Shown here one piece after another: positions 46,219 through 64,000 of a stretch of DNA of 64,000 nucleotides. The notes below the pieces were generated by a model that was not told the origin of the DNA, ran no database searches, and was given only the letters and a program-made list of their open reading frames with translations. The stretch is taken from contig OZ242195.1 of NCBI GenBank assembly GCA_965205975.1, forward strand, positions 2,112,001 through 2,176,000, written 5' to 3'. Within the stretch, counting starts at the first letter, position 1; each line of letters opens with the position of its first letter. The stretch comes from Candidatus Latescibacterota bacterium (lineage in GTDB: Bacteria; Latescibacterota; UBA2968). Made by a program: the position numbers and the translations under genes.

Positions 46219-47207
46219 AAACGATGCCTAAAAACAAAGCCTTATCTCCTATTGGTCCATATATCAATCATATCTACGGACCTTCAAGAATAGACTATAA
46301 TCCTGATGAACTGATTGTGTTGTGTCTCGTTCGCGATGGGCAAGCCTACATGCGAACATTTATTGAACATTATTTGGAGCTTGGAATCAGACATATTGTT
46401 TTTTTAGATAATGGCTCAAAAGACAGGACGCTTGCCATTGCCAGGCAGTATCCTAAAATATCCATCTTTTCTACCGCGCTGCCGTATAAAGAATATAAAT
46501 ATCAAATGAAGGAATATTTGATTCGACGGTTCGGAAAAAACAGATGGTCGCTTTACGTCGATATCGACGAACTATTCGACTTTCCTTCATCAGACAAAAT
46601 CGGCATCACAGATTTTTTGGCTTACTTAAACGCGCATTCATTTACTGCAGTTGTGGCACAAATGCTCGATATGTTTTCTGAGGATACATTGGGAAATTTG
46701 CCCAACGCAGAATCGACATCCTTAATGGCTACTTGCAATTATTACGATTTGTCGGAGATAACTAAAAAAGTGTATTCAGATGCCAAATTTTGTCCTCATA
46801 ATTTTGTTTCTAACGAAAAGATTACCCACTACAAAGGTGGCATAAGGCAAACACTTTTTGGCGCGGATTGTTCATTGACGAAACATCCGCTTATTTTTTT
46901 AGATGATGAAATTGAGCCTATGTGCCAGTCTTCTCATAAAATCGAAAATGGGTATATCGCAGATATTACAACTGTGCTCTACCATTTCAAATTCATTGAG
47001 GGTTTTGAAAGCCTCACTCAAAGGGCGGTTCGTGAAGAGAATTACTCAATGAACTCACGAGAATATAAGCGGTACTACGAAGTCCTGAAACGCCACCCCA
47101 ATCTGAAGATCAAACAAATAACTTCGAGAAAGCTGAACAACGTCAATGAATTGGTGGAAAACGGGTTTCTTGTTGTTTCGGAAAATTTTCAGAATTGGAT
47201 TTCCTGA
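46215..47207 (+). CDS. GT-A glycosyltransferase (GT2-like)
   Basis: VRD, FIEHY..LG, FLDNGS.D.T, WSLYVDIDE (DxD), HFKF. Confidence 0.85.
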   Translation: MKTMPKNKALSPIGPYINHIYGPSRIDYNPDELIVLCLVRDGQAYMRTFIEHYLELGIRHIVFLDNGSKDRTLAIARQYPKISIFSTALPYKEYKYQMKEYLIRRFGKNRWSLYVDIDELFDFPSSDKIGITDFLAYLNAHSFTAVVAQMLDMFSEDTLGNLPNAESTSLMATCNYYDLSEITKKVYSDAKFCPHNFVSNEKITHYKGGIRQTLFGADCSLTKHPLIFLDDEIEPMCQSSHKIENGYIADITTVLYHFKFIEGFESLTQRAVREENYSMNSREYKRYYEVLKRHPNLKIKQITSRKLNNVNELVENGFLVVSENFQNWIS

Positions 47208-47230
47208 GATCTCCTAATTTGTGGAAAAAA

Positions 47231-48259
47231 ATGAAAAAAGAATTGCCAATCGGAATGCCCCGAATCACTTGCGCACTTCACCATGCTTATCCCCTGTCCA
47301 TATTGGCAATCTCGGATGATTATCTTCCCTGGTTTTATAGCCATTACATCCAGATGGAATTTCAAACAGACGAAAAACAAAAATTCAACTTTTATCGCTA
47401 TCCCAAATATCATATGGCTGTATCGCCCTGGTTGCAGACCCAAATCGTGCATCATAATGTCATTCGCAAGGCGTACAAAAAAATCGTAGATTTTGTTATA
47501 GACGCCATTGATGAGGATCTATATGTCCAGATGGATGTTGACGAGTTTTATATACCTAACAAGGCATTGTACCACAGTCGGCATTACACCCGTGAATTGC
47601 TTATTTACGGATATGACGCACCAAACCAAACCCTTACGATCTTGGGCTTTGACGCAAAGGGAAATTACACATCAAGTGAGGTCCCTTTTTTTAATTTCGA
47701 GCAAGCGCATATAAATTCTATATCGCGCAATGAACAGGATTGCAGAGTACGGATGTTTAAATATCTCGATAATGCATACTATGAATTCGAACTTGAAGTC
47801 GTGCTTGAGCAATTACAAGATTATCTCTATGCCGTAAATACGTCAAAAAGATTTAGAAGTTTTTCGCGTGTTAAAAACTATGCGTATGGTCTTGCGACAT
47901 ATCGGGTTATTCAGAATTATCTTTCGTTTTTTGCCAAGAATGCGAGCGATATTAACCGCCTCATTTTTCACACACTTTGGGAACACAAACAATGCATGCA
48001 AGAACGCCTTCATTTTTTGGAACAACACGGGTTTTTAAGTTCATCTCATGCCTTGTCTATGGCTTATGCAGGCGTGAAAAAAGAGACAGAGAAATTGCGT
48101 GCGATGTCTTTTAAGTATGTCCTGACAAAAGATGCTGCGATTCTGGGAAGAATGATCGAATTGATCAATATAATTGCACTGGAAGAAGAGGCGATATTGG
48201 ATCGCGTTTGTGATGCACTGAAGACCATCATAAAAGCAAGAAGGAGGAATAATGGCTAA
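47231..48259 (+). CDS. BtrH N-terminal/C39-like fold protein (putative acyltransferase or peptidase)
   Basis: ITCALHHAYPLSI, WFYSHYIQ, DEFYIP....Y...H...ELLIYGYD, YGL..Y, LWEHK..M..R. Confidence 0.65.
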   Translation: MKKELPIGMPRITCALHHAYPLSILAISDDYLPWFYSHYIQMEFQTDEKQKFNFYRYPKYHMAVSPWLQTQIVHHNVIRKAYKKIVDFVIDAIDEDLYVQMDVDEFYIPNKALYHSRHYTRELLIYGYDAPNQTLTILGFDAKGNYTSSEVPFFNFEQAHINSISRNEQDCRVRMFKYLDNAYYEFELEVVLEQLQDYLYAVNTSKRFRSFSRVKNYAYGLATYRVIQNYLSFFAKNASDINRLIFHTLWEHKQCMQERLHFLEQHGFLSSSHALSMAYAGVKKETEKLRAMSFKYVLTKDAAILGRMIELINIIALEEEAILDRVCDALKTIIKARRRNNG

Positions 48260-49421
48260 GTATGCCGATCCTATCAAAGTCTGTTTTGCAACCTGGCAGT
48301 ATCCGCCGGATAAGGGAGGAGTCGGTCGGTCAGCACAACGGATTGCGACATATCTTGTGGAATTGGGATTTGATGTTCACGTCTTTGTACCAGATACCTC
48401 AACGCCTTTTTCCGATGATATACCAACACCCGTCACAGAGAATGGTATTCATTTATATCGCGTATCCACTGGGGCATCTGTATCTGGTAAAGAACAGGCG
48501 ATGTTTCTGACCATCAAACATTACGACGACTTGATATCCTTTGACATATTTCATGGCTTTTTCTTGCCTATCGCATATCCCTGCATCCTTGTTGCTGGGC
48601 GTACAAAGAGACCTGTTATTGCGAGCATACGAGGTGTTGATGGTTTTGGTCTGCTGGCGAATCTCGATTACTTCCCTTATATCTCTGCCGCAGTAGAAAG
48701 AGCGTCCTGGATTACCTCCGTCAATAGTGCGTTGTTAGACAATGTTTCTGTGATTTCAGATATTGAGAATAGATCGTCATTTATACCCAATTCAATAGAT
48801 GCCACAACATTTCCAAAATGGAGACCAGAGGCAGAAAACTCCGGTACGATAGGGACAGTTGCCATATTTCGCAGTAAGAAGAACTTGTCCTTACTTATTT
48901 CTGCGTATGCTAAAATAGACCCAAAACACCGCCGAAAGCTTCTACTGGTCGGCGAATTTGCCGAATATTCTAATCCCACAAAGGCAAATGCCATAGACAC
49001 CGAAAAAGCCAAAATTACCGCGTTGATTAAACAACAAGCTCTAGATAGCGAAGTCGATATGACGGGTTTCTTGGATAAAGCAGGTGTACAAGCACAGCTA
49101 TTAAACATGAATGTGTATGTGCAGTGCTCTAAATACGAAGGACTTCCAAATGCTCTTTTAGAAGCCGCCGCTGTTGGCCTTCCGATTGTTTCTACGGCGA
49201 CTGACGGCATGAAAGATGTGTTGGTAGATGGCGAAAGTGCCTTGCTTGTACCACCTGATGATCCCACTCGGCTTGCCCATGCAATAGAGATGATTTTGAC
49301 GAACGACACTCTAACACAGAAATTGTCAGAAGGAGCTCTCAAATTAGCGGAACAGCTAAGTCCGGCGTGCGAGCGAGATTTGTGGGTCCAACTTTATTAT
49401 CAATTGCTTGATATGAAATAG
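48252..49421 (+). CDS. GT4 glycosyltransferase
   Basis: YPP..GGVG, ASIRG.D, IPNSID, KK, YEGLPNALLEAAAVGLPIV. Confidence 0.9.
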   Translation: MAKYADPIKVCFATWQYPPDKGGVGRSAQRIATYLVELGFDVHVFVPDTSTPFSDDIPTPVTENGIHLYRVSTGASVSGKEQAMFLTIKHYDDLISFDIFHGFFLPIAYPCILVAGRTKRPVIASIRGVDGFGLLANLDYFPYISAAVERASWITSVNSALLDNVSVISDIENRSSFIPNSIDATTFPKWRPEAENSGTIGTVAIFRSKKNLSLLISAYAKIDPKHRRKLLLVGEFAEYSNPTKANAIDTEKAKITALIKQQALDSEVDMTGFLDKAGVQAQLLNMNVYVQCSKYEGLPNALLEAAAVGLPIVSTATDGMKDVLVDGESALLVPPDDPTRLAHAIEMILTNDTLTQKLSEGALKLAEQLSPACERDLWVQLYYQLLDMK

Positions 49422-49452: not shown

Positions 49453-51306
49453 ATGAGTGTAAAAATCGCTGTTGTTGATAGTGGTATTGAAAGTTCTCAT
49501 CCTGGTATAGGAACAGTTGCCGGTGGTGTGAATTTGTCATTGAATGAAGAAGGAAATGTTATTCAATCTGACGATTATGAAGATTATGCGGGTCACGGAA
49601 CAGCATGTGCAGGCATTATTCGAAAGAAGGTTCCCGATGCTGAATTGTATAGCATTCGGATTTTTGATCCGTCACTCTCTGCCCACGGTGATGTTTTAAT
49701 TGCGGCGATTGAGTGGGCGATTGAGAATAAAATGGATGTTTTGAATCTGAGCCTGGGTTCGACAGATGTATCCTATAAAGAGCGGCTTAGAGACGTATGC
49801 CTGCGAGCCGTTAAAGCCGGGATGATCATTGTTGCTGCCGAGCACAATGCGGGTCTTGAATGCTATCCGGCTGTCTTCCCTGAGGTCATAGGTGTTGGTG
49901 GTGGAGATATCTACCATCCAGATACCTACCTTTACAGAGATGCACAGACTATTGAATTTGTCGCAAGGGGGAATAAACAGAGACTTTGCTGGTTGGATGG
50001 CAAGGAAATCATCAGCGATGGAACCAGCTTCGCAGCACCCCATATTACAGGGATTGTAGGACGATTACTTCAGGAAAATCCCGGGCGATCATTATCTGAA
50101 ATCAGGCAAATACTCATTGAGAATGCAGAAAAAATACCACCTGATTCGCAGGCTGTTCAGTCCCTACGGAGGCAGAGATCTCTTGACAGGGATTACAGTT
50201 GGGTTAAAAGGGCGGTCTTATATCCGTACAATAAAGAAATGCATTCTCTGGTGCGTTATCGCGACATGCTGCCATTTGAGATTGTTGCTGTCGCCGATCC
50301 GGTAGCAAAGGGGTTGGTGGGAAAAGATGCGGGCGTGGTTATAGGAGAACAACCGTGCGGGTTGCGTATTCAGCCCAATTTGTCTGAAGCATTGCGCGAA
50401 GGAGATACACTTATCCTGGGCTATGTGGATCAGTTAATGCGGATACAACAGCGAGATTTGCTCAAGGAACTGATCAAGATGGCATTGGAAGCAGGTCTAA
50501 ATATTTTCAGTTTTCAAGTCGTCGATCCAGATCGCTATCGAGACTTATATCAATTGGCTGAACAGAACAACCGGTCTATTGTATTTCCACATATTGGTTT
50601 TGACGAAATCGTTGCATCTCAAGAGGCTTATGATCTTTACCCTAATGTCGATGCGCCTGTGGTCGCTGTGATGGGTACGAGTTCTCAACAGGGCAAATTC
50701 ACGTTGCAGATGGCTTTGCGCCGGTCATTCTTAAAGGCTGATTACAAAGTGGCTCAGATTGGTACAGAACACCACTCGGAACTGTTTGAAATGGATTTTG
50801 CCTTTCCGATGGGGTATGGATCAACGCTCAAAATGCCTCAGCAATCTTATGTGCCGTTTTTGGATTTTAAGATGCGCGAAATCAATCACCACAAGCAACC
50901 CGAGATTATCATCACGGGTTCACAATCTGGCACCATACCTTATGATGTTTATGATCACAATACACATTCTCTATCTTCGCTTGCATTTCTTCTCGGTGTC
51001 AAACCAGATGCGTGTGTGCTTGTTGTCAACAGTATTGATACCCATGAATACATCCGGGACACGATAGATGGCATACGCGCGATATGCAAAGCACCGACTC
51101 TGGCACTTGCCATGGGAGACAAAGAAAAGCATGTCCGCACGGCTTATGGCAAAAGCCTTGTGACGACGAGTGAGTTGTCACAAAAAGAAATCAATTCGCA
51201 TCTCAAACGGTTGACGGATACGTTCAGCTTGCCAGCAATACAAATATTATTAGAGAACGATCAAGAAAGGTTATTCAAAATCATCGTGGAATATTTTTCG
51301 AGATAG
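49453..51306 (+). CDS. S8 serine peptidase fused to a DUF1611/TIGR04066-like peptide-maturation domain
   Basis: Triad VVDSG / GHGTACAG / GTSFAAP; C-terminal LYPYNKE, GKDAG, P-loop-like GTSSQQGKFT, QIGTE, GSQSG. Confidence 0.85.
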   Translation: MSVKIAVVDSGIESSHPGIGTVAGGVNLSLNEEGNVIQSDDYEDYAGHGTACAGIIRKKVPDAELYSIRIFDPSLSAHGDVLIAAIEWAIENKMDVLNLSLGSTDVSYKERLRDVCLRAVKAGMIIVAAEHNAGLECYPAVFPEVIGVGGGDIYHPDTYLYRDAQTIEFVARGNKQRLCWLDGKEIISDGTSFAAPHITGIVGRLLQENPGRSLSEIRQILIENAEKIPPDSQAVQSLRRQRSLDRDYSWVKRAVLYPYNKEMHSLVRYRDMLPFEIVAVADPVAKGLVGKDAGVVIGEQPCGLRIQPNLSEALREGDTLILGYVDQLMRIQQRDLLKELIKMALEAGLNIFSFQVVDPDRYRDLYQLAEQNNRSIVFPHIGFDEIVASQEAYDLYPNVDAPVVAVMGTSSQQGKFTLQMALRRSFLKADYKVAQIGTEHHSELFEMDFAFPMGYGSTLKMPQQSYVPFLDFKMREINHHKQPEIIITGSQSGTIPYDVYDHNTHSLSSLAFLLGVKPDACVLVVNSIDTHEYIRDTIDGIRAICKAPTLALAMGDKEKHVRTAYGKSLVTTSELSQKEINSHLKRLTDTFSLPAIQILLENDQERLFKIIVEYFSR

Positions 51307-51325: not shown

Positions 51326-52189
51326 ATGCCACGTCAATCAATGGTTCTGGCCTGCGCCGATTCTGTCTTTCTATCCGAAATGCGTTCTGAAATAGAGAAA
51401 AATTTTGAAATCGAGATCATCGAAACCATAGACAGCAAGGACAGACTTTGGGGTTGTTTGAAGGAAATGAGGCCCTCGGTCCTCTGCATCTCAACGGATT
51501 TACTCGACAGCATTGGGCAAGTCTCTAAAATCAGGAAGTCGGCGAAGAGATCAAAACTGATTATTTGGGGCGAGGATAATATCGCCCTTGCTGTTGACGC
51601 GATGTATTTGGGGGCTGATTACTATGCCCTGAAAGGAGGGAATCTCGCGTTCTTTTTGGAAAAACTCCAGAAGATCACGGGTTTAAGAAAAAGATCCCAC
51701 TCTGTTTGGGCTTCAAAATTAGATGGTTTTTTGAGAGACCAGTTCAAAAATTCATCCTTAAATTTAAGCGTCTTGTGCGATCATTTCGGGATTTCACCGA
51801 GCTATGCGACGCGGTTGTTCCGCGAACATATCGGGATATCCTTTCACAAGTATTTGTCCTTTTATCGCGTGGAAGAAGCAAAACGCTATCTTGCCGACAC
51901 CAAAGACCTGATTTATGAGATTGCTGACAAATGTGGATTCACAGACAGCAACCACCTGATCAGAGTTTTTTTTAAATTTACAAATATGTCTCCAGACCAA
52001 TATCGAAAGTCTTTACAAGACACTGATTGGTTGGAATACAATTTGTCTGGTCATTCTATGCAGTTAAGCACCTCCCAACACCTGACGCGGCCCAACCAAT
52101 TACAAAAGAGAATATTCCGATACGACAACAGCTCTGTGACCGGTTTTGCAACAAAAGCGGAGTGTTCCAAACTCTGTTCTCGCATATGA
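51326..52189 (+). CDS. AraC-family regulator with degenerate receiver-like N-terminal domain
   Basis: ISPSYATRLFRE..G.SF, R.EEAK.YL, IYEIA.KCGF.DSNH..RVF.K...SP.QYRK; GGAGG RBS. Confidence 0.88.
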   Translation: MPRQSMVLACADSVFLSEMRSEIEKNFEIEIIETIDSKDRLWGCLKEMRPSVLCISTDLLDSIGQVSKIRKSAKRSKLIIWGEDNIALAVDAMYLGADYYALKGGNLAFFLEKLQKITGLRKRSHSVWASKLDGFLRDQFKNSSLNLSVLCDHFGISPSYATRLFREHIGISFHKYLSFYRVEEAKRYLADTKDLIYEIADKCGFTDSNHLIRVFFKFTNMSPDQYRKSLQDTDWLEYNLSGHSMQLSTSQHLTRPNQLQKRIFRYDNSSVTGFATKAECSKLCSRI

Positions 52190-52352
52190 GGACGAAGAAG
52201 ACGGCGTAGGCAAAACTACTCTATACGTGCCCTCAGCTTACTGTAACTGGGAAATTGAAGGATGTAGTACTCGTTACAATTATGATGGAGATTGCACTGC
52301 GATAACTTGGACGGGTGATGGTTGGACTATATTCACTTGTTTTGATGGTTAA
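52146..52352 (+). CDS. Putative RiPP precursor peptide 1 (4 Cys); start uncertain, possibly 5'-damaged
   Basis: NSVLAYEDEED shared with 59537-59764 at protein and DNA level; TTG start, no clear RBS, overlaps the AraC tail. Confidence 0.65.
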   Translation: MQQKRSVPNSVLAYEDEEDGVGKTTLYVPSAYCNWEIEGCSTRYNYDGDCTAITWTGDGWTIFTCFDG

Positions 52353-52403: not shown

Positions 52404-52439
52404 ACAGGACAATGTACTTGCTATAGTATGTTGTCCTGT
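52404..52439 (+). repeat. Conserved junction hairpin ACAGGACAA-N17/18-TTGTCCTGT, copy 1 of 6
   Basis: Other copies at 53738-53772, 57873-57907, 59223-59257, 59838-59872, 61268-61302. Confidence 0.85.
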
Positions 52440-52499
52440 TTCATATTTATTATGAGCGATTTTTCGATTCCGCTGAATTTTGTTCTGAGAGGTAGTGCT

Positions 52500-53684
52500 A
52501 TGAGAAAATCAATCATTCTATTTTGTGCTTCTTGCTTATTTTTTTCCTGCAATCAAAATGCAGAAATATCTCAAGACAAGCCGCCTTTGCAAAATGTAGC
52601 GGCACAGACAGTAGAGAAACAGAAGATACGGATGGAGAAGGTTTCTGAGATCCACCTTCAAGAGAATGAGGAAATTTATATTGGAACAATTCAGAGAATA
52701 AGAGTTGACCAAAACAGAATTTATCTCATGGATAGGAGCCGTAAGCAAGTTCTGATATATTCTATGGAAGGTGAATTTATTCGCGCCTTAGGCAGAAGCG
52801 GCGAAGGTCCTGGAGAGTTTCGCTATTTATATACAATGGATGTCAAAGATCACTTGGTTGCCTGCTTTGACCAAGGAAATATGCGAATGACTTTGTTTGA
52901 TACTTCGGGGGTATTCATCAGGTCTTTTGGAACCCGCTCACAAGACTCTGTTCCTTTGGGCAATTGTGTTGCAATCACACAACATCATACCATTCTACAC
53001 TGCCAGCAATCTACGAAGTTAACAAGAGAGGATGACTTGAAACTCTCCTATCCGTGGTTGATCTGTGAATTTGATACATTGGGTAATGTTCTCTCGCATC
53101 ACGGAAAATTCAACCGCCAGATTGTTGGTGATAAAATTGACAAACCGTTCACTGAATTCAAGTGGTCATTTCCTCGTTTTATCACAAGCAGAGATTCTCA
53201 AATATTTCTTTATTTTTTTAATATCCCTATTGTTGTTAGATATGACGAAAGCCATGCGGTTTCCCAAGTCTTCAACGTTGCAACGTCTATTACGAAACCC
53301 AAGTGGGTTGATAAAAACGCGGAAAAACTTCAGCATTTGAGTCCAGAGGCAAGAGCAAAATTGGCCATTCAACGAATGAAAAATGAGCATTCAATAATAA
53401 CATTTATTTCCGATATTGCTTATGTTGATAAGCATTCACTTCTATTTATTTTGCAAGGAGAGGAAGGACGCCAAGGCATTGATCGGACGCGCTCTTATTA
53501 TCTGAGTGCGTATGATGTGAATACTGGGCATCGTTTAATGACGGATATGCACCTACAATCAGAAAAATCTGTGTACTTCCAGCGCATAGCCGTTGACCAA
53601 AATGGCTTTATTTATAGCATCCATAACCATCAGCCTGACAATTTTGTAATCGCTAAATATGAGATCATCAGAGAGGAAATTTAG
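52500..53684 (+). CDS. 6-bladed beta-propeller lipoprotein, subtype A
   Basis: Lipobox LFFSC; G.FIR.LGR.GEGPGEF motif. Confidence 0.85.
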   Translation: MRKSIILFCASCLFFSCNQNAEISQDKPPLQNVAAQTVEKQKIRMEKVSEIHLQENEEIYIGTIQRIRVDQNRIYLMDRSRKQVLIYSMEGEFIRALGRSGEGPGEFRYLYTMDVKDHLVACFDQGNMRMTLFDTSGVFIRSFGTRSQDSVPLGNCVAITQHHTILHCQQSTKLTREDDLKLSYPWLICEFDTLGNVLSHHGKFNRQIVGDKIDKPFTEFKWSFPRFITSRDSQIFLYFFNIPIVVRYDESHAVSQVFNVATSITKPKWVDKNAEKLQHLSPEARAKLAIQRMKNEHSIITFISDIAYVDKHSLLFILQGEEGRQGIDRTRSYYLSAYDVNTGHRLMTDMHLQSEKSVYFQRIAVDQNGFIYSIHNHQPDNFVIAKYEIIREEI

Positions 53685-54802
53685 AGATCAAGAACTGGAC
53701 TAAATTCAATTCGAATACCTTTCACTGGAATGAGACAACAGGACAATGCACTTTTATCGTGTGTTGTTCTGTTGCATTTTAATGATTTAATTATCGATAT
53801 TCGATAATGATTTGAGCTTCACATGGGACATAAAATGACAAATTGGACAGTCTGTGTTTTGATCTGTGCGTTGGCGGTAGGCTGTCAGTCTGAGCAAGCC
53901 CCTGCTGTGGACGAGATACCGACCACCGACGTTCAAACGAAGCCATCTAATCAGGACAAAAAATTCGCGCTACAAAAGGTCTCAGAAATTCTGCTTGTAG
54001 AAGATCCCGATGATCCAATCGGAATTATCAAAGGTCTTCGCATTGACCAGGACCGCATTTATCTGATGGATACCAGCCAAAAAAGAATCATGGCTTTTAC
54101 CATAGATGGGCAATTTGTTCGCACCATTGGACGACAGGGCGGCGGACCGGGCGAGTTTCGTCAGTTATTTACCATGGATGTGAGAGACGGTTTAATTGCG
54201 TGTTTTGACCAGGCCAGGAGTCGCATTACCCTATTTGACACTTCGGGCACTTTTTTGAACTCCTTTGGAGCACGCACCAAAGCGTCTGCACCTTCGGGGA
54301 ATTGCATACGCATTACCCCGCAAAAAACCCTGTTGCTTTGCCATAAATCGTCTGAAGCACCCAAAAAACAAATAGAAGAAAACAATTACACCTGGACAAT
54401 ATGCGAATTTGATACACTCGGCAATGTGCTTTCGTATTTTGCACCGTACAATCAAGACATTGTAGGAGATAAACTTGAGCGTCCTTTGAATGAGTATGCG
54501 TTTTCGTTTGCCCAATTTCGTGCATCCAGTCCAGCCATAACACATCTTTGGAGGGGAAATATTCCGATTGTCGTTGCATATAAGGGACGTCAATCCATAG
54601 AGAAAACCATTGATATAAAAACAAATCTTACCAAGCCCAGATTTAGACAAGAGGCTGGCAAGATGCGTCAATCGCAGGGACCACCAACTGCTGCAAGCGT
54701 TAGAGCCAGGATAGAGAAACTTCAAAAAAATCCCCGTATAGAAACTTCTATACGGGATGTTTGGAGTTACCCCGCTTCGGTGGAGTATTTAGGGCTTGTG
54801 TA

Positions 54803-55651
54803 TCAAGCCTGTGATAGATGCAGTTTTTCATAAGCTATCGGCGCATAGTAGGCGATGGAAGAATGCCTGCGATGCGGGTTATACCATCCTTCAATATAGG
54901 AGAAGATAGCTAACCGCGCTTCCTTATGCGTACGGAAGCAACGACGATTGATCAACTCACACTCCAAGGTGGCGAAGAAGCTCTCGCACAGTGCGTTGTC
55001 ATAGCAGTCGCCAGCAGATCCCATTGAGGGACGCACGCCAGCCTCACGGCAACGCTTTCCAAATGCTATGGAGGTATATTGTGCCCCCTGGTCAGAGTGG
55101 TGGATCACGTCTTCGGGACGGCGCTGGTAAAGGGCCATATTTAAAGCTGACACGACCAACTCACTTTGCAGGTGTGTTGCCATAGCCCAACCCACGACGC
55201 GGCGGGAGAAGGCGTCCAAGACAACACTCAGATACAAGAAGCCAGACCAGGTGGGTACGTAGGTGATGTCAGCCACCCAGAGTTTATTGACCGTTGGCAC
55301 AGTAAAGTCTCGCTTTATCAGATCGGGAGCCTTTCTATCCTGATGCGCCTGACGCGTCGTTTGCGTGCTCTTTCGGCGAGAAACGCCACAAATGCCCATC
55401 TCACGCATCAGGCGTGCTACGCGCTTCTTCCCTACTCGGATACCCATATCCATCAGGTCTTTCCAGATGCGAGGGGCACCATAGGTGCTATCTGATCGGG
55501 TGTGAAAGGCTTTGATATGCGCCTTCAACTGTGCATCAACCTTTGCGCGTTTAGAGGCCGGACGTGCTCGCCAGGCATAATACCCGCTGAGGGAAACACC
55601 CAGCGTTCGGCATTGCATGGCGATTGGCCAACGTGCCTGGTGCGCTTTCAC
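54803..55651 (-). CDS. IS3 transposase OrfB (DDE integrase core)
   Basis: YGAPRI, WVADITY, HHSDQG.QY, DNA..ESFF..LE.E, YNP.R.HS. Confidence 0.95.
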   Translation of the reverse strand: MKAHQARWPIAMQCRTLGVSLSGYYAWRARPASKRAKVDAQLKAHIKAFHTRSDSTYGAPRIWKDLMDMGIRVGKKRVARLMREMGICGVSRRKSTQTTRQAHQDRKAPDLIKRDFTVPTVNKLWVADITYVPTWSGFLYLSVVLDAFSRRVVGWAMATHLQSELVVSALNMALYQRRPEDVIHHSDQGAQYTSIAFGKRCREAGVRPSMGSAGDCYDNALCESFFATLECELINRRCFRTHKEARLAIFSYIEGWYNPHRRHSSIAYYAPIAYEKLHLSQA

Positions 55652-55962
55652 GAACGCGAAGATTTTTTGGGGATCGCGTCGGTCTCCGCTGCGAACCAGG
55701 CCGCTGCTTTTGACAATATCTCGCGCTCAATGCGCAACTGCTTGTTCTCACGTCGAAGACGACGCAACTCTTCGCGCTCAGAACTGGTCAGGCCGTCTTC
55801 TCGAAGTCCTTCATCTCGATCAGCCTGACGTATCCAGTTTTGGATCGTCTGAGCGGTTGGCTCAAACTCTTTGGCCAACTCGGATGGAGAGCGACCAGCG
55901 CGCACAAGCTCGACGATCTGGCGCTTCAACTCGGATGGATAAGGCGGACGTGTTGGTGGCAT
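55648..55962 (-). CDS. IS3 transposase OrfA
   Basis: MPPTRPPYPSELK HTH, EL.RLRREN.QLR.EREIL.KAA; AGAAAGGA RBS. Confidence 0.92.
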   Translation of the reverse strand: MPPTRPPYPSELKRQIVELVRAGRSPSELAKEFEPTAQTIQNWIRQADRDEGLREDGLTSSEREELRRLRRENKQLRIEREILSKAAAWFAAETDAIPKKSSRS

Positions 55963-56401
55963 AGTGGGTCTCCTTTCTGAGTACTGATAAGGTACCCACC
56001 AAAACGGGTCAAGTCCAGTATTTGATGAAGCGCATTCAATTTTGCTTGTTTTACAAACTAAAAGCATATATCGAGGCACAGGCCCTGGAGGAGTAGGTGC
56101 GGAACGCTCTTGTTTCTTAAGTCTTTTTGACTATGATTCAGGACAAAATATCCTATCCGATATGCGATTTCCGGACCGCGAAGAGCAGCCAACGTATGTC
56201 AGAATAGATATGGATGCAGATGGGGCGATTTATTGTATAGAAAATGATGCGCCTGATAACTACGTTATTGGGAAGTATCGCCTTGTCGGAGAAAGCGCGA
56301 GAAAGGAGTAAATTTGTAGGTCGGGAGGTCGTGCGATTCGTTACATCGGGAACTGGTCTTCGTCGCGAAACAAAATTCTGTTACTTGGCATAAGAGAAAG
56401 C

Positions 56402-56566: not shown

Positions 56567-57775
56567 ATGGCAAAATGGACAGTATGTGTCTTGATCTGTG
56601 CTTTGTCGGTGGGATGTCAGTCTGAACAAGCTCCTGCTGTAGCTGAGGTGCCTAAAGACGACATTCAAATGAAGCCACCCAATCATGACAGGAAATTCAC
56701 ACTACAAAAGGTCTCAGAGATTCTGATATTAGAAAACCCAGATGAGCCCATTGGGGTCGTCAGTGGTTTGCGCGTAGATCAAGACCGTATTTATTTAAAG
56801 GATAAAAGTCAAAAAAGGATCATGGTTTTTACCATCAATGGGCAATTTGTTCGCTCCATTGGGCGACAAGGAGGCGGCCCGGGTGAGTTTCGCCGTTTAT
56901 ATACCATGGATGTTAGAGATGGTTTAATTGCATGTTTTGACGAAGGAACCCGTCGGATTACGCTGTTTGATAGTTCTGGCGTTTTTTTGAACTCCTTTGG
57001 AGTACGTACCAAAAAGTCTGTTCCAGCAGGGAGTTGCATCAGCATTACTCCGCAAAAAACCCTGATACTTTGCTCTGAATCAATAGAGTCGCCAAAAAAA
57101 CAAATGGCAGAACACAATTATCCCTGGTTAATATGCGAATTTGATACGCTCGGTAATGTGCTTTCGTATTTTGCTCCATACAATGATAAAGTATTGGGAG
57201 ATAATCTTGAGAAACTTGAAAGACCATTGCACGAATATGAGTTTTCTTTTGCAATCTTTCGGTCAGACTCTCCAACCATAACACATCTTTGGATGGGAAA
57301 TATTCCTATTGTCGTCGCATATCAGGACCGTCAATCCATCGAGAAAACAATCAATGTCAAAACTGCCCTCACCAAACCCAAATTTAGAGAAAAGAAGGAA
57401 AATGTTGGTCAACAGCAAGGACCAACCGCAGCAAGCGTTAGAGCCAGGATAGAGAAACTTCGGAAAAATCCCCGTGTAGAAACTTCTATATCGGATGTTC
57501 TATTTGACGAAGAGCATTCACTATTGCTCGTTTTACAGCAACAAGTAACACTGCGAGGGGGACCACCGGAACGCGCCTATTTCTTAAATCTCTTTGACTA
57601 TGATTCAGGGCAGAACATCCTATCCGATATGCGATTTCCTAATGTTGAAGAACAGCCAAGGTATGTCAGAATAGATATGGATGCTGGTGGCGCGATTTAT
57701 TGTATAGAAAATGATGCGCCTGATAACTACGTCATTGGGAAGTATCGCCTTGTCGAAGAAAGCGCAAGAAAATAG
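56567..57775 (+). CDS. 6-bladed beta-propeller lipoprotein, subtype B
   Basis: Lipobox LSVGC; GRQGGGPGEF; paralogue of 53835 and 59995. Confidence 0.85.
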   Translation: MAKWTVCVLICALSVGCQSEQAPAVAEVPKDDIQMKPPNHDRKFTLQKVSEILILENPDEPIGVVSGLRVDQDRIYLKDKSQKRIMVFTINGQFVRSIGRQGGGPGEFRRLYTMDVRDGLIACFDEGTRRITLFDSSGVFLNSFGVRTKKSVPAGSCISITPQKTLILCSESIESPKKQMAEHNYPWLICEFDTLGNVLSYFAPYNDKVLGDNLEKLERPLHEYEFSFAIFRSDSPTITHLWMGNIPIVVAYQDRQSIEKTINVKTALTKPKFREKKENVGQQQGPTAASVRARIEKLRKNPRVETSISDVLFDEEHSLLLVLQQQVTLRGGPPERAYFLNLFDYDSGQNILSDMRFPNVEEQPRYVRIDMDAGGAIYCIENDAPDNYVIGKYRLVEESARK

Positions 57776-57981
57776 AGCCTCAAATCAAAAAACCGTCTGA
57801 ATCAGGATGGGCAAGATGAGCGGATAAGCAGGATAAGGCACGGGTTGTTCCATAGCACTTAGAAGTTAGATCACAGGACAACGTACTTGCAGAGTATGTT
57901 GTCCTGTTTTAATATTCCTGATGAGTATTCCTTATGAGCGATTTTTCTATTGCATTGGACTTTGTTCTGAAGAGGTTGTGT

Positions 57982-59169
57982 ATGACAAAATCAATCATTC
58001 TGTTTTGTGTTTCCTGCTTCTTTTTTGCATGCAATCAGGATGCAGAAGTATCGCAAGACAAACCGTCTTTGCAAAATTCAGAGGCACAAACAGTAGAGAA
58101 CCATCAAATACGTATGGAGAAGGTTTCTGAGATCCACTTAAAGGAAAATGAAAAAGCGTATATTGGAGAAATAAAAAAAATAAAAATTAATGAAAATCGA
58201 ATCTTTCTTATGGATAAGAGTCTGAAGCAGGTTCTGATATTTTCTATGGAAGGTGAATTTGTTCGTGCCTTAGGCAGGAGCGGTGGAGGGCCTGGCGAAT
58301 TTCGCTTTTTGTATACGATGGATGTCAAAGACAACTTAGTCGCTTGTTTTGACCAGGGAACACGTAGAATGACCTTGTTCGACACTTCGGGTGTGTTCAT
58401 CAGGTCTTTTGGAACCCAGTCGCAAAGGTCAGTTCCTCAGGGCAATTGCGTTGCAATCACACAACATCATACGATTTTACACAGCCAAAACCCTAAGGGA
58501 CTACCCAAAAAGCAGTGGCTATCATACACCTATCCTTATTTGATCTGCGAATTTGATACATTGGGCAACGTCCTATCCCATTATGGAAAATTCAACCAGC
58601 AGATCGTCGGAGACAAACTTGATAAACCATTAACTGAATTTGAGTGGTCATTTCCTCACTTTATCGCAAGTGGAAAGTCTCAAACGTACCTTTGGTTTGC
58701 TAATATTCCTCTTGTTGTCAAGAATGACGAAAGTAATGAGATTTCCAAAGCCTTCAACGTAGCAACGCCGATTACGAAACCGAAGTGGGTTGATAAAGAC
58801 AGAAAGAAAAAGGAAGAAGAAATGCGACATTTGAGTAATAAAGAAAAAATGATGCTGGCCATTCAACTCATGAAAAACGACCATTCGACAACAACACAAA
58901 TGTATGACATTGCTTATGTTGATAAGCATAAAATTTTATTGACTTTACAAACAGAAGAAGTGCGCCGAGGCTTTCCTCACTGGACGCGCACTCGCTATCT
59001 GAGTGCGTATGATGTGCATACTGGGCAACGTTTAATGACGGATATCCCTCTCCAATCGAAATACGAGACTTTGGCCGTTGACCAAGATGGCTTTTTCTAT
59101 TGTATTCAGAGTGATAAACCTGACAATTTTGTAATCGCCAAATATGAGATCATTAGAGAGGAAATTTAG
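57982..59169 (+). CDS. 6-bladed beta-propeller lipoprotein, subtype A
   Basis: Lipobox FFFAC; paralogue of 52500. Confidence 0.85.
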   Translation: MTKSIILFCVSCFFFACNQDAEVSQDKPSLQNSEAQTVENHQIRMEKVSEIHLKENEKAYIGEIKKIKINENRIFLMDKSLKQVLIFSMEGEFVRALGRSGGGPGEFRFLYTMDVKDNLVACFDQGTRRMTLFDTSGVFIRSFGTQSQRSVPQGNCVAITQHHTILHSQNPKGLPKKQWLSYTYPYLICEFDTLGNVLSHYGKFNQQIVGDKLDKPLTEFEWSFPHFIASGKSQTYLWFANIPLVVKNDESNEISKAFNVATPITKPKWVDKDRKKKEEEMRHLSNKEKMMLAIQLMKNDHSTTTQMYDIAYVDKHKILLTLQTEEVRRGFPHWTRTRYLSAYDVHTGQRLMTDIPLQSKYETLAVDQDGFFYCIQSDKPDNFVIAKYEIIREEI

Positions 59170-59304
59170 AGGTCAAGAACTGGACTAAATTCAATTCGAA
59201 TACTTTTCACTGGAATAAGACAACAGGACAATGCACTCAAAAAGTGTGTTGTCCTGTTCCTTTTTGCAGAATCGCACGGACACGCATTTGGAAGAACCTG
59301 GATA

Positions 59305-59417
59305 TTTGCTACAAAAGATGTGTTTCAGTGTGCAAAATAGATACGTATGGCAGAAAATGATATTCATAAGGTTTGTCGCATCAATCACAAGGCTATATCT
59401 TTAGATCAAGTTACGAT
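59305..59417 (+). promoter_or_regulatory. 113-bp putative promoter/operator, duplicated at 61552-61664
   Basis: tttgctacaaaagat...caaaatagatacgt.tggcagaaaatgatatt.ataaggtttgt...gttacgat in both copies. Confidence 0.65.
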
Positions 59418-59536
59418 GCAGAGTGCATTGAGGTTGTTCACTACAGAGAGCCGCGTGATTGTTTGGTCAAAAGCATTTTGCTGACCTTTATAGCCGCCAT
59501 CCAGCGGATCTCTAAACATAACGAAAGGAGTTTCAA

Positions 59537-59764
59537 ATGAAGCGCGTATTGTCCAAACCTCAGCACGAGGTTGCGAACTCTGTTCTCGCGTATCAGGACG
59601 AGGACGACGAGCAAGATTGTTCTGGTTCGTACTGGTACGCAAACAATCAGTGGTTCGCGCATTGGCCCTGTGATGCCGTCTGTGAAGACCATGATTGCTG
59701 GGAAAGAGAAGGCGCAGGGTCTTGCACATTGGTTTCTGATGGCAGCGAGCAAACATGTTACTGA
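59537..59764 (+). CDS. Putative RiPP precursor peptide 2 (6 Cys, 4 Trp)
   Basis: AAGGAG RBS + ATG; leader MKRVLSKPQHEVANSVLAY then an acidic Cys-rich core. Confidence 0.8.
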   Translation: MKRVLSKPQHEVANSVLAYQDEDDEQDCSGSYWYANNQWFAHWPCDAVCEDHDCWEREGAGSCTLVSDGSEQTCY

Positions 59765-59994
59765 TTTCATTGTTTCGTGGTGAGTTTATTCCAAATTCTA
59801 AGGAATACTTTCCCTAGAAATCAGGAAGGTATAGGTGACAGGGCAACGCATTTCTGTAGTGTGTTGTCCTGTTTCATATTGACACGCACGATATTTGACT
59901 TGATGATGCGTTATTTCAGAGGCTATATTACAATCATATGTGGGCACTGCCCTTTCGCGGATGACTATTTGAATCTCATAATGGGGTGTAAAAC

Positions 59995-61206
59995 ATGAAA
60001 CGATCGGTAATATGTCTTTGTTTTTTTTTCTGTGCTTTGGCAGGAGGCTGTCAATCCGAAAAAGAGCTAGCTTTACCTGAGGAAGAAGATCAAGCAAAGA
60101 TACCTGATCAAGCAAAAAAATTTGCTCTACAAAAGGCCTCAAAAATTCTACTCGTGGAAAACCCAGATGACCCAATCGGAGTCATCAAAGGGCTCCGCGT
60201 TGACCAAGACCGCATCTATCTGATGGATACGAGTCAAAAAAAAATTATGGTTTTTACAACCGAAGGCAAATTCATTCGCTCAATTGGGCGGCAGGGTGGT
60301 GGACCGGGTGAGTTTCGTCAGTTATTTACCATGGATGTAAGAGACGGTTTAATTGCTTGTTTTGACCAAGCCAGACGTCGAATTACGCTGTTTGACAGTT
60401 CAGGCGTCTTTTTGAACTCCTTTGGAGCACGCACCAAAGAGTCTGCTCCTGCAGGGAACTGCATAAGCATTACACCAGATAGAACACTTTTGCTTTGCCA
60501 TGCATCGTCAAAATCGCCAAAAAAACAAATAGCAGAACACAATTATCCCTGGTTAATATGCGAATTTGACACGCTTGGTAATGTTTTTTCTTATTTTGCC
60601 CCGTACAATAACAAGATATTGGGAGATAAACTTGAAAGACCATTGCAAGAATATGAGTTTTCTTTTGCCCAGTTTCACGCACTTAGTTCAAACATAACAC
60701 ATCTTTGGAGAGGAAATATTCCGATTGTCATTGTATATAACCATCAATCCATCGCGAGAACTATAGATGTTAGAACGGCTCTTACCAAATCTAAATTTAG
60801 AGAAAAGAGAGAAAATGTTCATCAATCACAGAAACCAACCGCATCAAGCCTTCGAGCTATGGCGGAGAAACTGCGGAAAAATCCTCGTATAGAAACTTCT
60901 GTAAGGGACGTACTGTTTGACGAGGCGCATTCATTGTTGCTCGTTTTGCAGCAAAAACGCACATATCGAGGCAGTGGGCCAGGAGGAGTAGGTTCGGAAG
61001 ATGCGTACTTCTTAAGTCTCTTTAACTATGATTCAGGACAAAATATCCTATCAGATATGCGATTTCCAGACCGCGAAGAACAGCCAACGTATGTCAGAAT
61101 GGATATTGATGATTCTGGAGCTATTTATTGTATTGAAAATGACGCACCTGATAACCACGTCATTGGGAAGTATCGCCTTGTCAAAGAAAACGCGAAAAAG
61201 GAGTAA
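59995..61206 (+). CDS. 6-bladed beta-propeller lipoprotein, subtype B
   Basis: Lipobox LAGGC; GRQGGGPGEF. Confidence 0.85.
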   Translation: MKRSVICLCFFFCALAGGCQSEKELALPEEEDQAKIPDQAKKFALQKASKILLVENPDDPIGVIKGLRVDQDRIYLMDTSQKKIMVFTTEGKFIRSIGRQGGGPGEFRQLFTMDVRDGLIACFDQARRRITLFDSSGVFLNSFGARTKESAPAGNCISITPDRTLLLCHASSKSPKKQIAEHNYPWLICEFDTLGNVFSYFAPYNNKILGDKLERPLQEYEFSFAQFHALSSNITHLWRGNIPIVIVYNHQSIARTIDVRTALTKSKFREKRENVHQSQKPTASSLRAMAEKLRKNPRIETSVRDVLFDEAHSLLLVLQQKRTYRGSGPGGVGSEDAYFLSLFNYDSGQNILSDMRFPDREEQPTYVRMDIDDSGAIYCIENDAPDNHVIGKYRLVKENAKKE

Positions 61207-61664: not shown

Positions 61665-61718
61665 ATCTTGGACATCACAATAGGACTTCAGTTTGAATCG
61701 ATTTTGAAAGAGCGTTTT

Positions 61719-62417
61719 ATGGACAAAACCTTAAATCATACCCCCTTAAAATTGCCGATACCCAAAAAGGCGATGATCGGTTTGGGAAGCCTGATTCTCG
61801 TGGGATGGGCAATCATTACAGTTATCTTGTTTGTCGAATATCGCAAAAGCAAGGTGTTGCTTACCGAGTATTCACCTATTGTAGAAAAGTATAATTATTT
61901 TAAGAATTTAGGAGAACAACACAGAACGCTGGAAACGATGACTTTTCCTGAGGCTTCTCTAAGAATCTTGACTGGCGATTCAACAGCAGTAAGCAATCTC
62001 CAGGAAAGAACGGATTACGCTGTTGCGATTCTTTTTACGAAAAATGATTGTTCATCCTGTTTGGAGACCGAGTTGGACTTATGGCAAAAGTTTTACCCCC
62101 ACAATGCAGAAAACCTCGATGTGGTCGCCATAGCCAAAATCACCCCACTGACAACGCGAGAAAAAATTGAAAGAGAACTTGGAGGCCTGTGGAAAGAGCC
62201 TGTTTATTATGATGAAAATAAGCCTTCGCTATTCGAACATCTGAATATTATACATACACCGACTTTGCTATTTTATGAAAAAAGAACGCGCAAAATTATA
62301 TACGCGCACCTCGGAATGGTTGGTGATCGCGTTGGGCCAGAGAGTTTTAAGCAAAAAGTGGCAGCCTGGCTCAAGCTCAAAGGTAAGACAGTAAATCTGG
62401 ACTATGATAAATCTTGA
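61719..62417 (+). CDS. Membrane-anchored thioredoxin-fold protein (TlpA/ResA-like)
   Basis: N-terminal TM, DCSSC, HTPTL cis-Pro motif. Confidence 0.7.
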   Translation: MDKTLNHTPLKLPIPKKAMIGLGSLILVGWAIITVILFVEYRKSKVLLTEYSPIVEKYNYFKNLGEQHRTLETMTFPEASLRILTGDSTAVSNLQERTDYAVAILFTKNDCSSCLETELDLWQKFYPHNAENLDVVAIAKITPLTTREKIERELGGLWKEPVYYDENKPSLFEHLNIIHTPTLLFYEKRTRKIIYAHLGMVGDRVGPESFKQKVAAWLKLKGKTVNLDYDKS

Positions 62418-62561
62418 GGCAATCGGAATGCAGGCTGCGTTGAATGGGTAAATTGACGGGATCATAGCCCTGTGATTTTTGATTAAGAGTGGAGGTTGTT
62501 TTGGACACTTATAGCTCCACTCTTTTTTTGTCGCGCATGTCTTCTCTGTTTGGCGTGTATT

Positions 62562-63008
62562 ATGAGTAATTTCTTAAAAATAGGCATACTGGTCGCCTTT
62601 TCGTCTTTCCTCAGTATTGGAAGCCTCAGCTTTCAGAATACAGATCATCTGTTTCATTCCAAAGATATTCAACCCATTTCTCTACAAGCCGCAAGATGGT
62701 TTTTTGACCAACAGGGCATCGTATTTCTCGATGCGCGGTCTCATCAGGAATACGCTATAGGGCACATACCAGGAGCCATCAATCTGTCTATCTCAAATTT
62801 TGAAAAACAGAAAACCGTTTTGTTAAATATTCCACTCAGTGTCACGATCATTGTGTATTGCTCTGGGGCGACTTGCCAGAGTAGCTTGAAAATTGCGGAA
62901 TGGACAAAGGACTACCTGGGTGATCATAGAAACGTGTACGTATTCCTGGAGGGCTTTCCCGCCTGGGAGAAAGCAAAATTCCCCGTTGCAGTTGAGGAAG
63001 ATCAATAA
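62562..63008 (+). CDS. Rhodanese-like domain protein, likely exported
   Basis: FLDAR...EY..GHIPGA, VYCSGATC, GF.AW. Confidence 0.85.
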   Translation: MSNFLKIGILVAFSSFLSIGSLSFQNTDHLFHSKDIQPISLQAARWFFDQQGIVFLDARSHQEYAIGHIPGAINLSISNFEKQKTVLLNIPLSVTIIVYCSGATCQSSLKIAEWTKDYLGDHRNVYVFLEGFPAWEKAKFPVAVEEDQ

Positions 63009-63496
63009 TGTCCTTCTCTTCCCTGCAAGTCATCATGCGCCTCATTTTGGGAGGTGTATTTTTCTGGGCTGGCATCGTTAAAATACCAGATCTCGAGTTA
63101 TTCTCATATACTGTGCGAGCGTATAATCTATTGCCTGAGTTTCTGATTCTTCCAGTCACAATATTGGTGCCTTGGCTTGAATGCGTCATCGGCCTGTGTT
63201 TGGTCGTGGGGTTTTGGACGCACGCGAGCACGCTCATTGCTTCGGGACTGCTCATTACCTTTGCCGGTGCATTGGGCACTAAAATTTATCAGGGCGTGAA
63301 TATGTCCTGCGGATGCTTTGGCTTTGGTGCTGAACGCGGTTCTTTAGAGTGGGTTCTCTCGCAGGATGTGTTGCTGCTCTCCTTTGCTTTGCTGCTCTTT
63401 TGTAAACAGAAAATTTCATTTTCTCTCGATGAGTATTTGAGCGTCAGAAATTGGCGGTTTAACAACTGCTTAGAAGAAGCTGACTCACTGCCTTAG
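63008..63496 (+). CDS. MauE/DoxX family membrane protein
   Basis: R..LG.VF..AG..KI, PWLE, SCGCFG. Confidence 0.88.
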   Translation: MSFSSLQVIMRLILGGVFFWAGIVKIPDLELFSYTVRAYNLLPEFLILPVTILVPWLECVIGLCLVVGFWTHASTLIASGLLITFAGALGTKIYQGVNMSCGCFGFGAERGSLEWVLSQDVLLLSFALLLFCKQKISFSLDEYLSVRNWRFNNCLEEADSLP

Positions 63497-63550: not shown

Positions 63551-64000
63551 ATGATTCCGCTGATATTCGCTTGCCAGAGACGTTCGGGAGGCACATTTCT
63601 CATAAATCTTGCGCGTACAGCTCTGTTTATTCATCCACAACAATTTGGAAATCATTTTCGGTGTATTCGTCCTAATCGCAAAAAGGAAGATATCTGTAAA
63701 GGGTGGCGCGAAAAACAGGATCCAGAAGAACAAAGTAGATGGCTTCGAGGTTACATTCAGAAACACAAAGTGAAATATATCAAGATCGAGGAGCCGGGTA
63801 TCAATTCATTTGCCGACCATGTAAGAGAGACCTTTCCTGAGGCCCTGTGGCTGACTACCGTGAGAAATATATCACACATCGTTGCCTCACATTATAATAT
63901 TAAATCTTGGGGTGAATCTGTAGATGTTGTTGTTAAACAATGGGAGCAGAATCTTGATTTCTTCGAAAGATTGCAGGAGTCCCAAACGCACACGGCAAAT
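63551..64000 (+). CDS. Sulfotransferase-family protein (partial, runs off the window; absent from the ORF track)
   Basis: MIPLIFACQRRSGGTFL (5'-PSB-like)...FPEALWLTTVRN..HIVASH (3'-PB-like); 150 codons without a stop. Confidence 0.7.
   Translation, partial: MIPLIFACQRRSGGTFLINLARTALFIHPQQFGNHFRCIRPNRKKEDICKGWREKQDPEEQSRWLRGYIQKHKVKYIKIEEPGINSFADHVRETFPEALWLTTVRNISHIVASHYNIKSWGESVDVVVKQWEQNLDFFERLQESQTHTAN

Follow-up and report, generated by a model that had tools for sequence, protein, structure and literature searches.

The closest described relatives of the gene cluster analysed here are the CLI_3235/CcpM cassettes of Bacillota, which bring together a TIGR04065 precursor, TIGR04066, a TIGR04069 acyl carrier protein (ACP), a TIGR04068 radical SAM enzyme, a subtilase and an ABC transporter; the cassette also appears in the available portion of PMC4573289. 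SacP23 of Paenibacillus polymyxa, a CLI_3235-family product made from a subtilase/TIGR04066/ACP cluster, has a blocked N-terminus and a mass that departs from the prediction, and thioether cross-links could explain the block (available text of PMC10731318). A second point of reference is the QhpE/QhpF maturation of the small subunit QhpC: in the accessible part of PMC7876137, QhpE, a cytoplasmic subtilisin-like protease, cuts the leader ahead of export by a peptidase-free ABC exporter, and the system includes an AraC-type regulator and a small, acidic, Cys-rich substrate. Finally, ACP-bound acyl donors and N-acylation have precedents among RiPPs in the goadvionins, lipolanthines and selidamides, and in goadvionins the ACP-bound acyl unit is transferred by a GNAT (PMC8784127, from the part of the text available).

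We analysed a window of 64,000 nucleotides from contig OZ242195.1 of a Candidatus Latescibacterota bacterium (genome G000), which contains a cluster with features of each of these systems (Table 1). In common with the CLI_3235/CcpM cassettes, it combines a TIGR04066-like protein, an ACP, a subtilase and an ABC exporter, here scoring below the curated cut-offs. Like CLI_3235, its precursors carry a short basic leader that ends in [VI]-x-A-[YF]; in this family the ending is VLAY in 36/36 members, at the same place as IEAF in the SacP23 precursor (PMC10731318, available part). In contrast to the cassettes, however, there is no radical SAM enzyme, the protease and the TIGR04066 domain are fused, and propeller lipoproteins, thioredoxin/MauE/rhodanese proteins and RND pumps are added; the cores are acidic and hold a spaced four-Cys frame, whereas CLI_3235 has dense CxC repeats after the leader. 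The CLOSPO_01332 and CLI3235 clusters were also its Atlas feature neighbours at 0.75-0.77, which we treat as a lead only. Comparison with TIGR04065, a check proposed in the initial annotation, failed: neither peptide matched, none of the 36 family members did so at E≤10, and 0/168 genomes of the phylum scored above the cut-off. Judged by its genes, the cluster appears to work like a CLI_3235/CcpM cassette minus the radical SAM enzyme, but its precursor is not a TIGR04065 member. The peptide family and its protease-fused TIGR04066 without radical SAM together form a new form of a chemically uncharacterised peptide cluster. Neither the family nor TIGR04066 chemistry is described in the literature searched (subscription journals and supplements lay outside the search), and for Latescibacterota the available part of PMC12993501 gives generic RiPP clusters only.

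The likeness to the Qhp system has similar bounds. Here QhpD, QhpG and a haem subunit are missing, the substrate is hypervariable and present in several copies, and no Trp is conserved: the invariant cofactor Trp of tryptophylquinone small subunits (QhpC, MauA) is absent in the 36 cores. Likewise, the known acylated RiPPs use a GNAT and lanthionine synthetases, and goadvionins also polyketide machinery, none of which is part of the present cluster; neither a GNAT acyltransferase nor a lanthionine synthetase was found among its ORFs.

Table 1. Features of the peptide cluster within the 64,000-nucleotide window (G000, present genome; G002, G012 and G015, genomes with loci of the same type)
Feature	Position	Strand	Remarks
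ACP, first cluster gene	44798..45058	+	Pfam PP-binding E 1.7e-10, above cut-off; phosphopantetheine serine present
GT28-like glycosyltransferase, variable accessory	45082..46218	+	Pfam Glyco_tran_28_C; G000, G002, G012, not G015
GT2-like glycosyltransferase, variable accessory	46215..47207	+	Pfam Glyco_tranf_2_4; G000 and G015 only
BtrH-like protein, second candidate ACP-dependent acyl transfer enzyme	47195..48259	+	in 4/4 loci
GT4 glycosyltransferase	48252..49421	+	Pfam Glycos_transf_1; G000 only among the four loci
Cytoplasmic S8 protease fused to TIGR04066-like DUF1611 domain, DgcN fold	49453..51306	+	Peptidase_S8 E 3.8e-28
AraC-type regulator	51326..52189	+	Pfam HTH_18; last codons replaced by read-through over deletion
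Peptide 1, decapitated precursor remnant	52158..52352	+	leader residue 10 onward, four-Cys core
Terminator-like hairpin after peptide 1	52404..52439	+	conserved; copies at 53736, 56402 (degenerate), 57873, 59222, 59838, 61267
Beta-propeller lipoprotein, type I, follows peptide 1	52428..53684	+	DUF5128
Beta-propeller lipoprotein, type II, split by insertion sequence	53823..56311	+	transposase ORFs 54803-56079, minus strand
Beta-propeller lipoprotein, type II, no peptide gene ahead	56567..57775	+	
Beta-propeller lipoprotein, type I, no peptide gene ahead	57934..59169	+	
Conserved upstream region of peptide 2	59305..59536	+	starts with copy of AraC gene end
Peptide 2, intact precursor	59537..59764	+	19-aa leader ending VLAY, 56-aa core, six Cys, net charge -13
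Beta-propeller lipoprotein, type II, presumed partner of peptide 2	59995..61206	+	DUF5128
Membrane-anchored thioredoxin-like protein, CxxC	61668..62417	+	weak Pfam thioredoxin match E 0.013; CSSC in sequence
Rhodanese-domain protein	62496..63008	+	Pfam Rhodanese E 6.2e-16
MauE/DoxX membrane protein	63008..63496	+	Pfam MauE E 5.8e-24
Sulfotransferase-like gene	63551..64000, runs past window	+	weak Pfam match E 0.007; G000 only

Loci of this type occur in four genomes. Their core gene order is identical in G002, G012 and G015, and the glycosyltransferases and the sulfotransferase-like gene vary; past the window lie a peptidase-free ABC exporter, a membrane fusion protein and two AcrB-type RND pumps. 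The ACP, which reaches 32 bits against TIGR04069 (cut-off 70), is present in 4/4 loci, and a phosphopantetheinyl transferase is encoded in the same genome. The BtrH-like protein has no Pfam match of its own, and is 35% identical to a counterpart in another cluster of the same genome that matches BtrH_N (E 1.3e-5, below cut-off). No fatty-acid or polyketide loading enzymes were found in the cluster. Radical SAM enzymes were likewise missing from 4/4 loci of the present type (no CxxxCxxC ORF, no tblastn match), which makes a disulfide-folded mini-protein likelier than a cross-linked RiPP. The locus is accessory and of lower GC, at 39-44% outside the insertion sequence versus 51%. Three further observations concern its surroundings: an HTH plus pentapeptide-repeat gene (43508-44671), divergent from the cluster, is absent at the same place in the three relatives; two genes at 41757-43049 resemble nitrile hydratase beta and alpha subunits in their motifs; and a MoxR ATPase/DUF58/vWA-like/TPR block, recognised by eye, occupies 23387-37282 on the minus strand. 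In G002, an orphan C-terminal piece of a propeller gene lies upstream of the ACP (L031:11553-11729).

The S8 protease with its C-terminal DUF1611 domain is the candidate leader protease and N-acyltransferase of the cluster. QhpE is its best protease model (152 bits, cut-off 165), and it scores 128 bits against TIGR04066 (cut-off 200); all family models, TIGR04069 for the ACP included, stay below their cut-offs. A sequence search of the PDB with the DUF1611 domain gave no match, and its relatives were found by fold search alone: the model of the C-terminal domain (pLDDT 89.9) matched 2g0t, 2obn and DgcN (7xrj) at Z 25.1-29.8, with the next row at 15. The Rossmann-like plus P-loop two-domain DUF1611/DgcN fold is present throughout, with Z 25-30 over 306-311 residues, but at 17-18% identity; unlike those proteins, the present domain shares its chain with a protease and is accompanied by an ACP. 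The title of 7xrj names an N-acetyltransferase, and DgcN acts in a D-glutamate use pathway, according to the available part of PMC10845958.

Peptide 2 is a real gene. Its ORF encodes 75 aa, and AAGGAG lies six bases 5' of the ATG; the six Cys, four Trp and strong ribosome-binding site (RBS) initially ascribed to it are all borne out. The region ahead of it (59305-59536) presumably contains its promoter and RBS; a scan for sigma-70 promoters gave no excess (17 versus 20.7). The first ~110 bp of this region (59305-59420) recur at 61552-61664, and every peptide gene, like the thioredoxin-like gene, has an upstream element that opens with a copy of the last AraC codons, which suggests duplication from the end of the AraC gene. 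The regulator itself is 284 aa long in three relatives versus 287 here, and has a conserved tail of ~50 residues behind the HTH. Its N-terminal part has no Pfam receiver match, and the usual phospho-acceptor Asp is absent by eye.

Peptide 1 lies 7.4 kb upstream of peptide 2 and overlaps the end of the AraC-type gene. Its frame, which contains NSVLAYEDEEDG, has the four Cys and three Trp reported for it, and the pattern C-x8/9-CT..DG..TC[FY] that was said to unite the two peptides is indeed present in both. Two precursor peptides had been proposed, however, and of these peptide 2 alone is intact: peptide 1 has neither ATG nor RBS, its sole start being a TTG at 52146 within the AraC-type gene. 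In G002, G012 and G015, a normal stop closes the AraC gene, and the conserved upstream region, an RBS and an ATG come next. Compared with these three relatives, 246-247 bp are missing here, and the AraC frame reads into leader codon 10. From this alignment we conclude that a deletion of ~246 bp took the promoter region, the RBS and nine codons of peptide 1. The intact database relative P0022 is identical to the remnant at 55/64 residues. The junction cannot be attributed to an assembly slip, as contigs from three samples of one study (one possibly the source sample) cross it without difference. Translation from the TTG at 52146, which lacks an RBS, is unlikely. In run X1, one low-depth contig (window 52150-59311) joins the AraC end to an intact upstream region, as in the relatives; this contig probably derives from a minor relative. 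The 21 runs listed included none of RNA, and rows with a small share in sponge and marine metagenomes were left aside as a guide to habitat.

A profile built from seven genes recovered 36 homologous proteins at E≤0.01 among 423 candidates. These homologues, together with a leader pS of 0.45 versus a pN of 0.18 (pooled over 21 non-independent pairs of the seven genes), indicate that the family is not due to chance; an excess of pS over pN is as expected for a coding gene. The matches of an exhaustive profile search formed 23 clusters at 50% identity, 21 of them real; the long matches P0097 and P0102 were dropped as repeat artefacts. Full-length members were found in 4/132 genomes of the class, all within the organism's own genus. 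Neither Pfam (no match for the peptides) nor a scan of JGI metagenomes based on the peptide alignment, in which not one of 227 pattern matches was confirmed, extended the family. The leader, MKxxLxKPQ...VLAY, is short and basic and lacks a long hydrophobic stretch; for all its resemblance to the Sec-exported small proteins of the NVEALA kind, the family does not have their hydrophobic signal peptide. All 36 members have a 19-residue leader ending in VLAY and a Glu at +3. By comparison, NSVLAY[EQ]DE[ED]D, which had been put forward as a constant motif, proved to be an artefact of comparing two sequences, since it is complete in 3/36 members and NSVLAY occurs in 12/36. Across the six frames of the 5.56-Mb genome, NSVLAY falls in short open frames in peptides 1 and 2 only; a third match lies within a 644-aa frame.

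The expected RiPP precursor pattern of a conserved leader and a variable core is supported by these alignments, with identities across the 36 members of 76% for the leader and a mean of 29% for the core. Leader and core identity are uncorrelated (Spearman -0.04 over 630 non-independent pairs), which suggests cassette shuffling. The cores had been described as hypervariable with even numbers of Cys. They are variable, and the Cys count is even in 32/36, but a common frame is kept: C-x4-6-C-x8-9-C-x10-19-C occurs in 33/36, with a further aligned pair in 6/36. The cores are 48-73 aa long, with one of 36 aa, and an acidic stretch directly follows the leader. Their acidity, also claimed at the outset, was confirmed throughout the family, with a net charge of -6 to -18 in 36/36, a range unusual for bacteriocins.

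In the AlphaFold2 model of peptide 2, the leader is disordered and the core forms six strands, all-beta, in a block with pLDDT near 90. Fold searches with this model gave no match (best Foldseek E 0.9, best VIA-align Z 3.1), a result by which novelty is unproven. The strand register in the model suggests the pairing C28-C45, C49-C54 and C63-C74. C49 and C74 are lost together in two related members, and this co-loss suggests pairing of C49 with C74 and of C54 with C63. A modelled complex of the core with the downstream propeller scored 0.00 and, having been run without controls, carries no weight either way.

The S8-DUF1611 fusion reaches well beyond the peptide family: 138 matches were found in 84/168 genomes of the phylum. 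We examined 40 regions that hold 41 of these matches, and the counts over them are descriptive, as the loci are related by descent. The S8 catalytic motifs were matched in 41/41 fusions. An ACP was present at 36/40 loci and adjoined the fusion at 33, a radical SAM enzyme at 5/40 and a GNAT at 8/40. A small ORF bearing the leader, of the form M-x-x-L-x-K-x(8-12)-[VI]-x-[AG]-Y, was found at 27/40 loci (32 peptides); these counts leave out a pattern match at L060 that was judged false by eye beforehand. The leader pattern found no peptide at the other 13/40, and in the present genome it also matches 11 further ORFs out of 6,112 starts led by an RBS. Glu at +3 occurs in 27/41 peptides versus a background of 6.6%. 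Behind this leader stand mutually unrelated cores of 29-117 aa that range from Cys-rich (29 aa) to Cys-free (117 aa), and acidity extends to the Cys-free cores. Because the same type of leader is found at fusion loci on unrelated cores, the maturase appears to travel with the leader and not with the core.

Export partners, by contrast, track the type of core across the fusion loci. Thioredoxin-like genes occur at 12/14 propeller loci versus 0/26 others, and the propeller loci have cores of 41-58 aa with 2-6 Cys; HlyD is present at 13 loci, none of them with a propeller and most with long, Cys-poor cores. An outside leader profile, built from the 32 peptides at other loci in other genomes, ranked the four intact precursors of the present genome first among 43,729 small-ORF starts, each of them ≤10.1 kb from one of three S8 fusions. 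Peptide 2 came fourth with 12.0 bits (E 0.46), and the first unrelated ORF had 10.9 bits. In 80 metagenome loci, where scores of the phylum leader profile were weak (10-17 bits), the seven best matches lie on the strand of the TIGR04066-like gene and six of them are short Cys peptides in radical-SAM clusters. The leader homologues that the initial annotation had predicted near similar enzymes were thus found, at 27/40 further loci and, in the present genome, as four precursors near three fusions; its link to a TIGR04065/TIGR04066-type cluster gains support from the recurrence of the leader beside the same S8-TIGR04066 fusion.

The other clusters differ in detail. In the present genome, L034 (G000:C1:3069500-3082000) is a second S8-DUF1611/ACP cluster whose two precursors end in IYGY and each precede a propeller lipoprotein; an FtsX-type permease also follows the first precursor, and an ABC gene is cut by an insertion sequence. 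A third, L035 (G000:C1:4635000-4644500), comprises HlyD, ABC, a CPBP protease, GNAT, the fusion, an ACP and a BtrH-like protein, and its 140-aa precursor has a VIAY leader and a long, helical-looking core. At L070:2410-3410, a fusion with a long extra N-terminal part adjoins three precursors in tandem, which share the leader type but have hydrophobic four-Cys cores. A SPASM-type radical SAM gene with a 58-aa upstream ORF lies near another S8 fusion (G000:C1:3084810-3086445), and a homologue lies ~8 kb from the present-type cluster in G015.

The present cluster holds an array of DUF5128 six-bladed beta-propeller lipoproteins, five tandem members with clear Pfam and Atlas matches; the Cys of their signal peptide is nearly invariant in 38 aligned relatives. 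Here they fall into two types, ~40% identical, and the type goes with the class of peptide encoded upstream. All eight family peptide genes seen in context are directly trailed by a DUF5128 lipoprotein gene, and core class matches propeller type in 8/8 pairs: short-hairpin cores (10-residue last loop) precede type II in 3/3 cases, and long-hairpin cores (14-19-residue last loop) precede type I in 5/5. Gene order suggests a cognate lipoprotein partner for the core, in place of the signalling, metal binding or host interaction that the initial annotation had put forward for the acidic cores; linkage and shared descent, instead of binding, may account for the 8/8 pairing. Propeller net charge runs from -6 to +10, not strongly basic overall, and charge complementarity with the peptides is not evident from net charge. 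In the four genomes, propeller genes equal or exceed peptide genes in number, and two of seven peptide genes are broken (by the deletion here and by an insertion sequence in G012) with their propellers intact. Such a gene pattern is expected of toxin-immunity or ligand-receptor arrays, but linkage by itself could also give rise to it. The insertion sequence that splits one propeller gene in the window is, by its features, presumably IS3-like.

Each peptide in the window is also directly trailed by a terminator-like hairpin. Six copies and one degenerate copy, 35-39 nt long (window 52404-61303), stand at gene boundaries and are kept in the relatives. The hairpin pattern gave five exact matches versus none in 100 shuffles, and two weak matches only elsewhere in the genome. 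We considered integron attC sites for these elements and rejected them: the core-site pattern of attC is absent, the + strand folds better with G-U pairs, and T runs follow.

We propose that peptide 2 gives rise to an acidic mini-protein that is exported, folded with disulfides and encoded in a polymorphic gene array, and hold this four-step model slightly more likely than not. The leader would probably be cut off by the neighbouring protease-acyltransferase fusion before export, and an acyl cap possibly takes its place. In the first step, of which we are rather confident, the leader would recruit the cytoplasmic S8 protease, which would cut at or just after the Tyr; the site would be either after the Tyr or ahead of the invariant Glu at +3. 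The second step, which we put forward tentatively at a little under an even chance, would have the DgcN-fold domain or the BtrH-like protein transfer an acyl group carried by the ACP to the freshly exposed N-terminus. DgcN itself uses acetyl-CoA. Against acylation count the lack of acyl-loading enzymes in the cluster and the nature of the DgcN likeness, a fold at 17-18% identity that does not imply acyl transfer. The third step seems likely: the peptide would pass the inner membrane through the peptidase-free ABC exporter, two to three disulfides would form with the help of the thioredoxin-like, MauE and rhodanese proteins, and the RND pumps would release the product. In the fourth, on which we are evenly divided, the folded core would be recognised by the directly downstream propeller, most likely an immunity protein or receptor, in strain-level antagonism or recognition. 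Published support for these steps is indirect and comes from QhpE, SacP23, the goadvionins and DgcN. Also counted against the model are the strong acidity of the cores, the narrow lead of peptide 2 over the first unrelated ORF in the outside leader profile, the 13/40 loci where the pattern found no peptide, and the one propeller gene here that is itself broken. A broader and more speculative reading, which we think doubtful, is that the S8-DUF1611 fusion and its ACP form a machine of general use, which would cut ribosomal mini-proteins with nearly any core (29-118 aa) and cap them with a lipid, with neither Sec nor Lgt involved; the cut may fall before the Glu at +3, which would then be acylated as free glutamate is by DgcN. 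In the present cluster, the machine would serve a polymorphic set of disulfide-bonded beta-sheet ligands of an unmatched fold, each read by its own propeller type.

Many of the same data could describe a strain-specific signal (pherotype), with the matured peptide as a diffusible cue, the propeller as its receptor and the AraC-type regulator closing the loop. The regulator lies directly ahead of the first peptide in 4/4 loci, every peptide gene, like the export genes, has a conserved element ahead of it, the cores are present in many allelic forms (21 clusters at 50% identity), and acidic cores suit a ligand better than a pore former. However, the cluster has no sensor kinase or membrane transducer, the regulator lacks a Pfam receiver match in its N-terminal part, and surplus propellers with decaying peptide genes suit immunity arrays at least equally well; we therefore judge a pherotype unlikely. 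The core might instead not be released at all and serve the propeller lipoprotein as a small subunit of variable sequence. Its maturation would resemble that of QhpC, by a cytoplasmic subtilase and ABC export, and oxidation with the help of MauE and the thioredoxin-like protein would give a surface complex of changeable specificity. This would fit the score of the QhpE model, the order of leader cleavage and export described for that protease (PMC7876137, available part), the co-occurrence of MauE, thioredoxin-like and propeller genes and the predicted folded beta-sheet of the core. A quinone cofactor is excluded by the absence of an invariant Trp (best column 19/36; two cores without Trp), neither a haem partner nor radical SAM is seen at the loci, propellers outnumber peptides, and RND export is dedicated, so that a subunit role appears improbable.

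Two chemical readings of the Cys-rich, acidic core are more improbable again. One is a RiPP with thioether links, of the ranthipeptide or sactipeptide kind, on which a radical SAM enzyme encoded elsewhere in the genome would act in trans: the core is rich in Cys and Asp/Glu, related leaders occur in radical-SAM clusters, and the SPASM-type enzyme described above lies near another S8 fusion here and ~8 kb from the cluster in G015. That enzyme, however, has a small upstream ORF of its own, and the four loci themselves contain no radical SAM. Moreover, no fixed spacing from Cys to acid is apparent (best 23/33 at -1 and 20/33 at -3, with no invariant Asp/Glu up to five residues from any frame Cys in the family alignment), disulfide-handling genes are present, and Cys counts are mostly even; we give thioether links very little probability. 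The other holds that acidic and Cys residues bind metal ions and that the propeller retrieves the loaded peptide. Here the uniform negative charge of the 36 cores and a weak match of the MauE-like protein to a copper-binding RiPP maturation family (E 0.0036) would agree, but there is no conserved His or ligand set (best His column 8/36), a fixed metal ligand would not be expected to diversify so strongly, and the acidity is common to Cys-free cores of other loci. Metal scavenging is, in our view, highly improbable.

Returning to the exported mini-protein model, our results suggest that a peptide and a surface lipoprotein of its own type constitute an unstudied recognition or toxin-immunity system. 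For years, lists of peptide maturation proteins have included TIGR04066 and its ACP without an assigned reaction. In the present cluster they occur without radical SAM, fused to a protease in the case of TIGR04066, and with many natural substrates that share the leader alone, and the reaction thereby becomes testable with three genes. If acylation is true, it would represent a new lipopeptide route with very wide core tolerance, and the pairing of peptides with propellers would give the first testable role for DUF5128 lipoprotein arrays.
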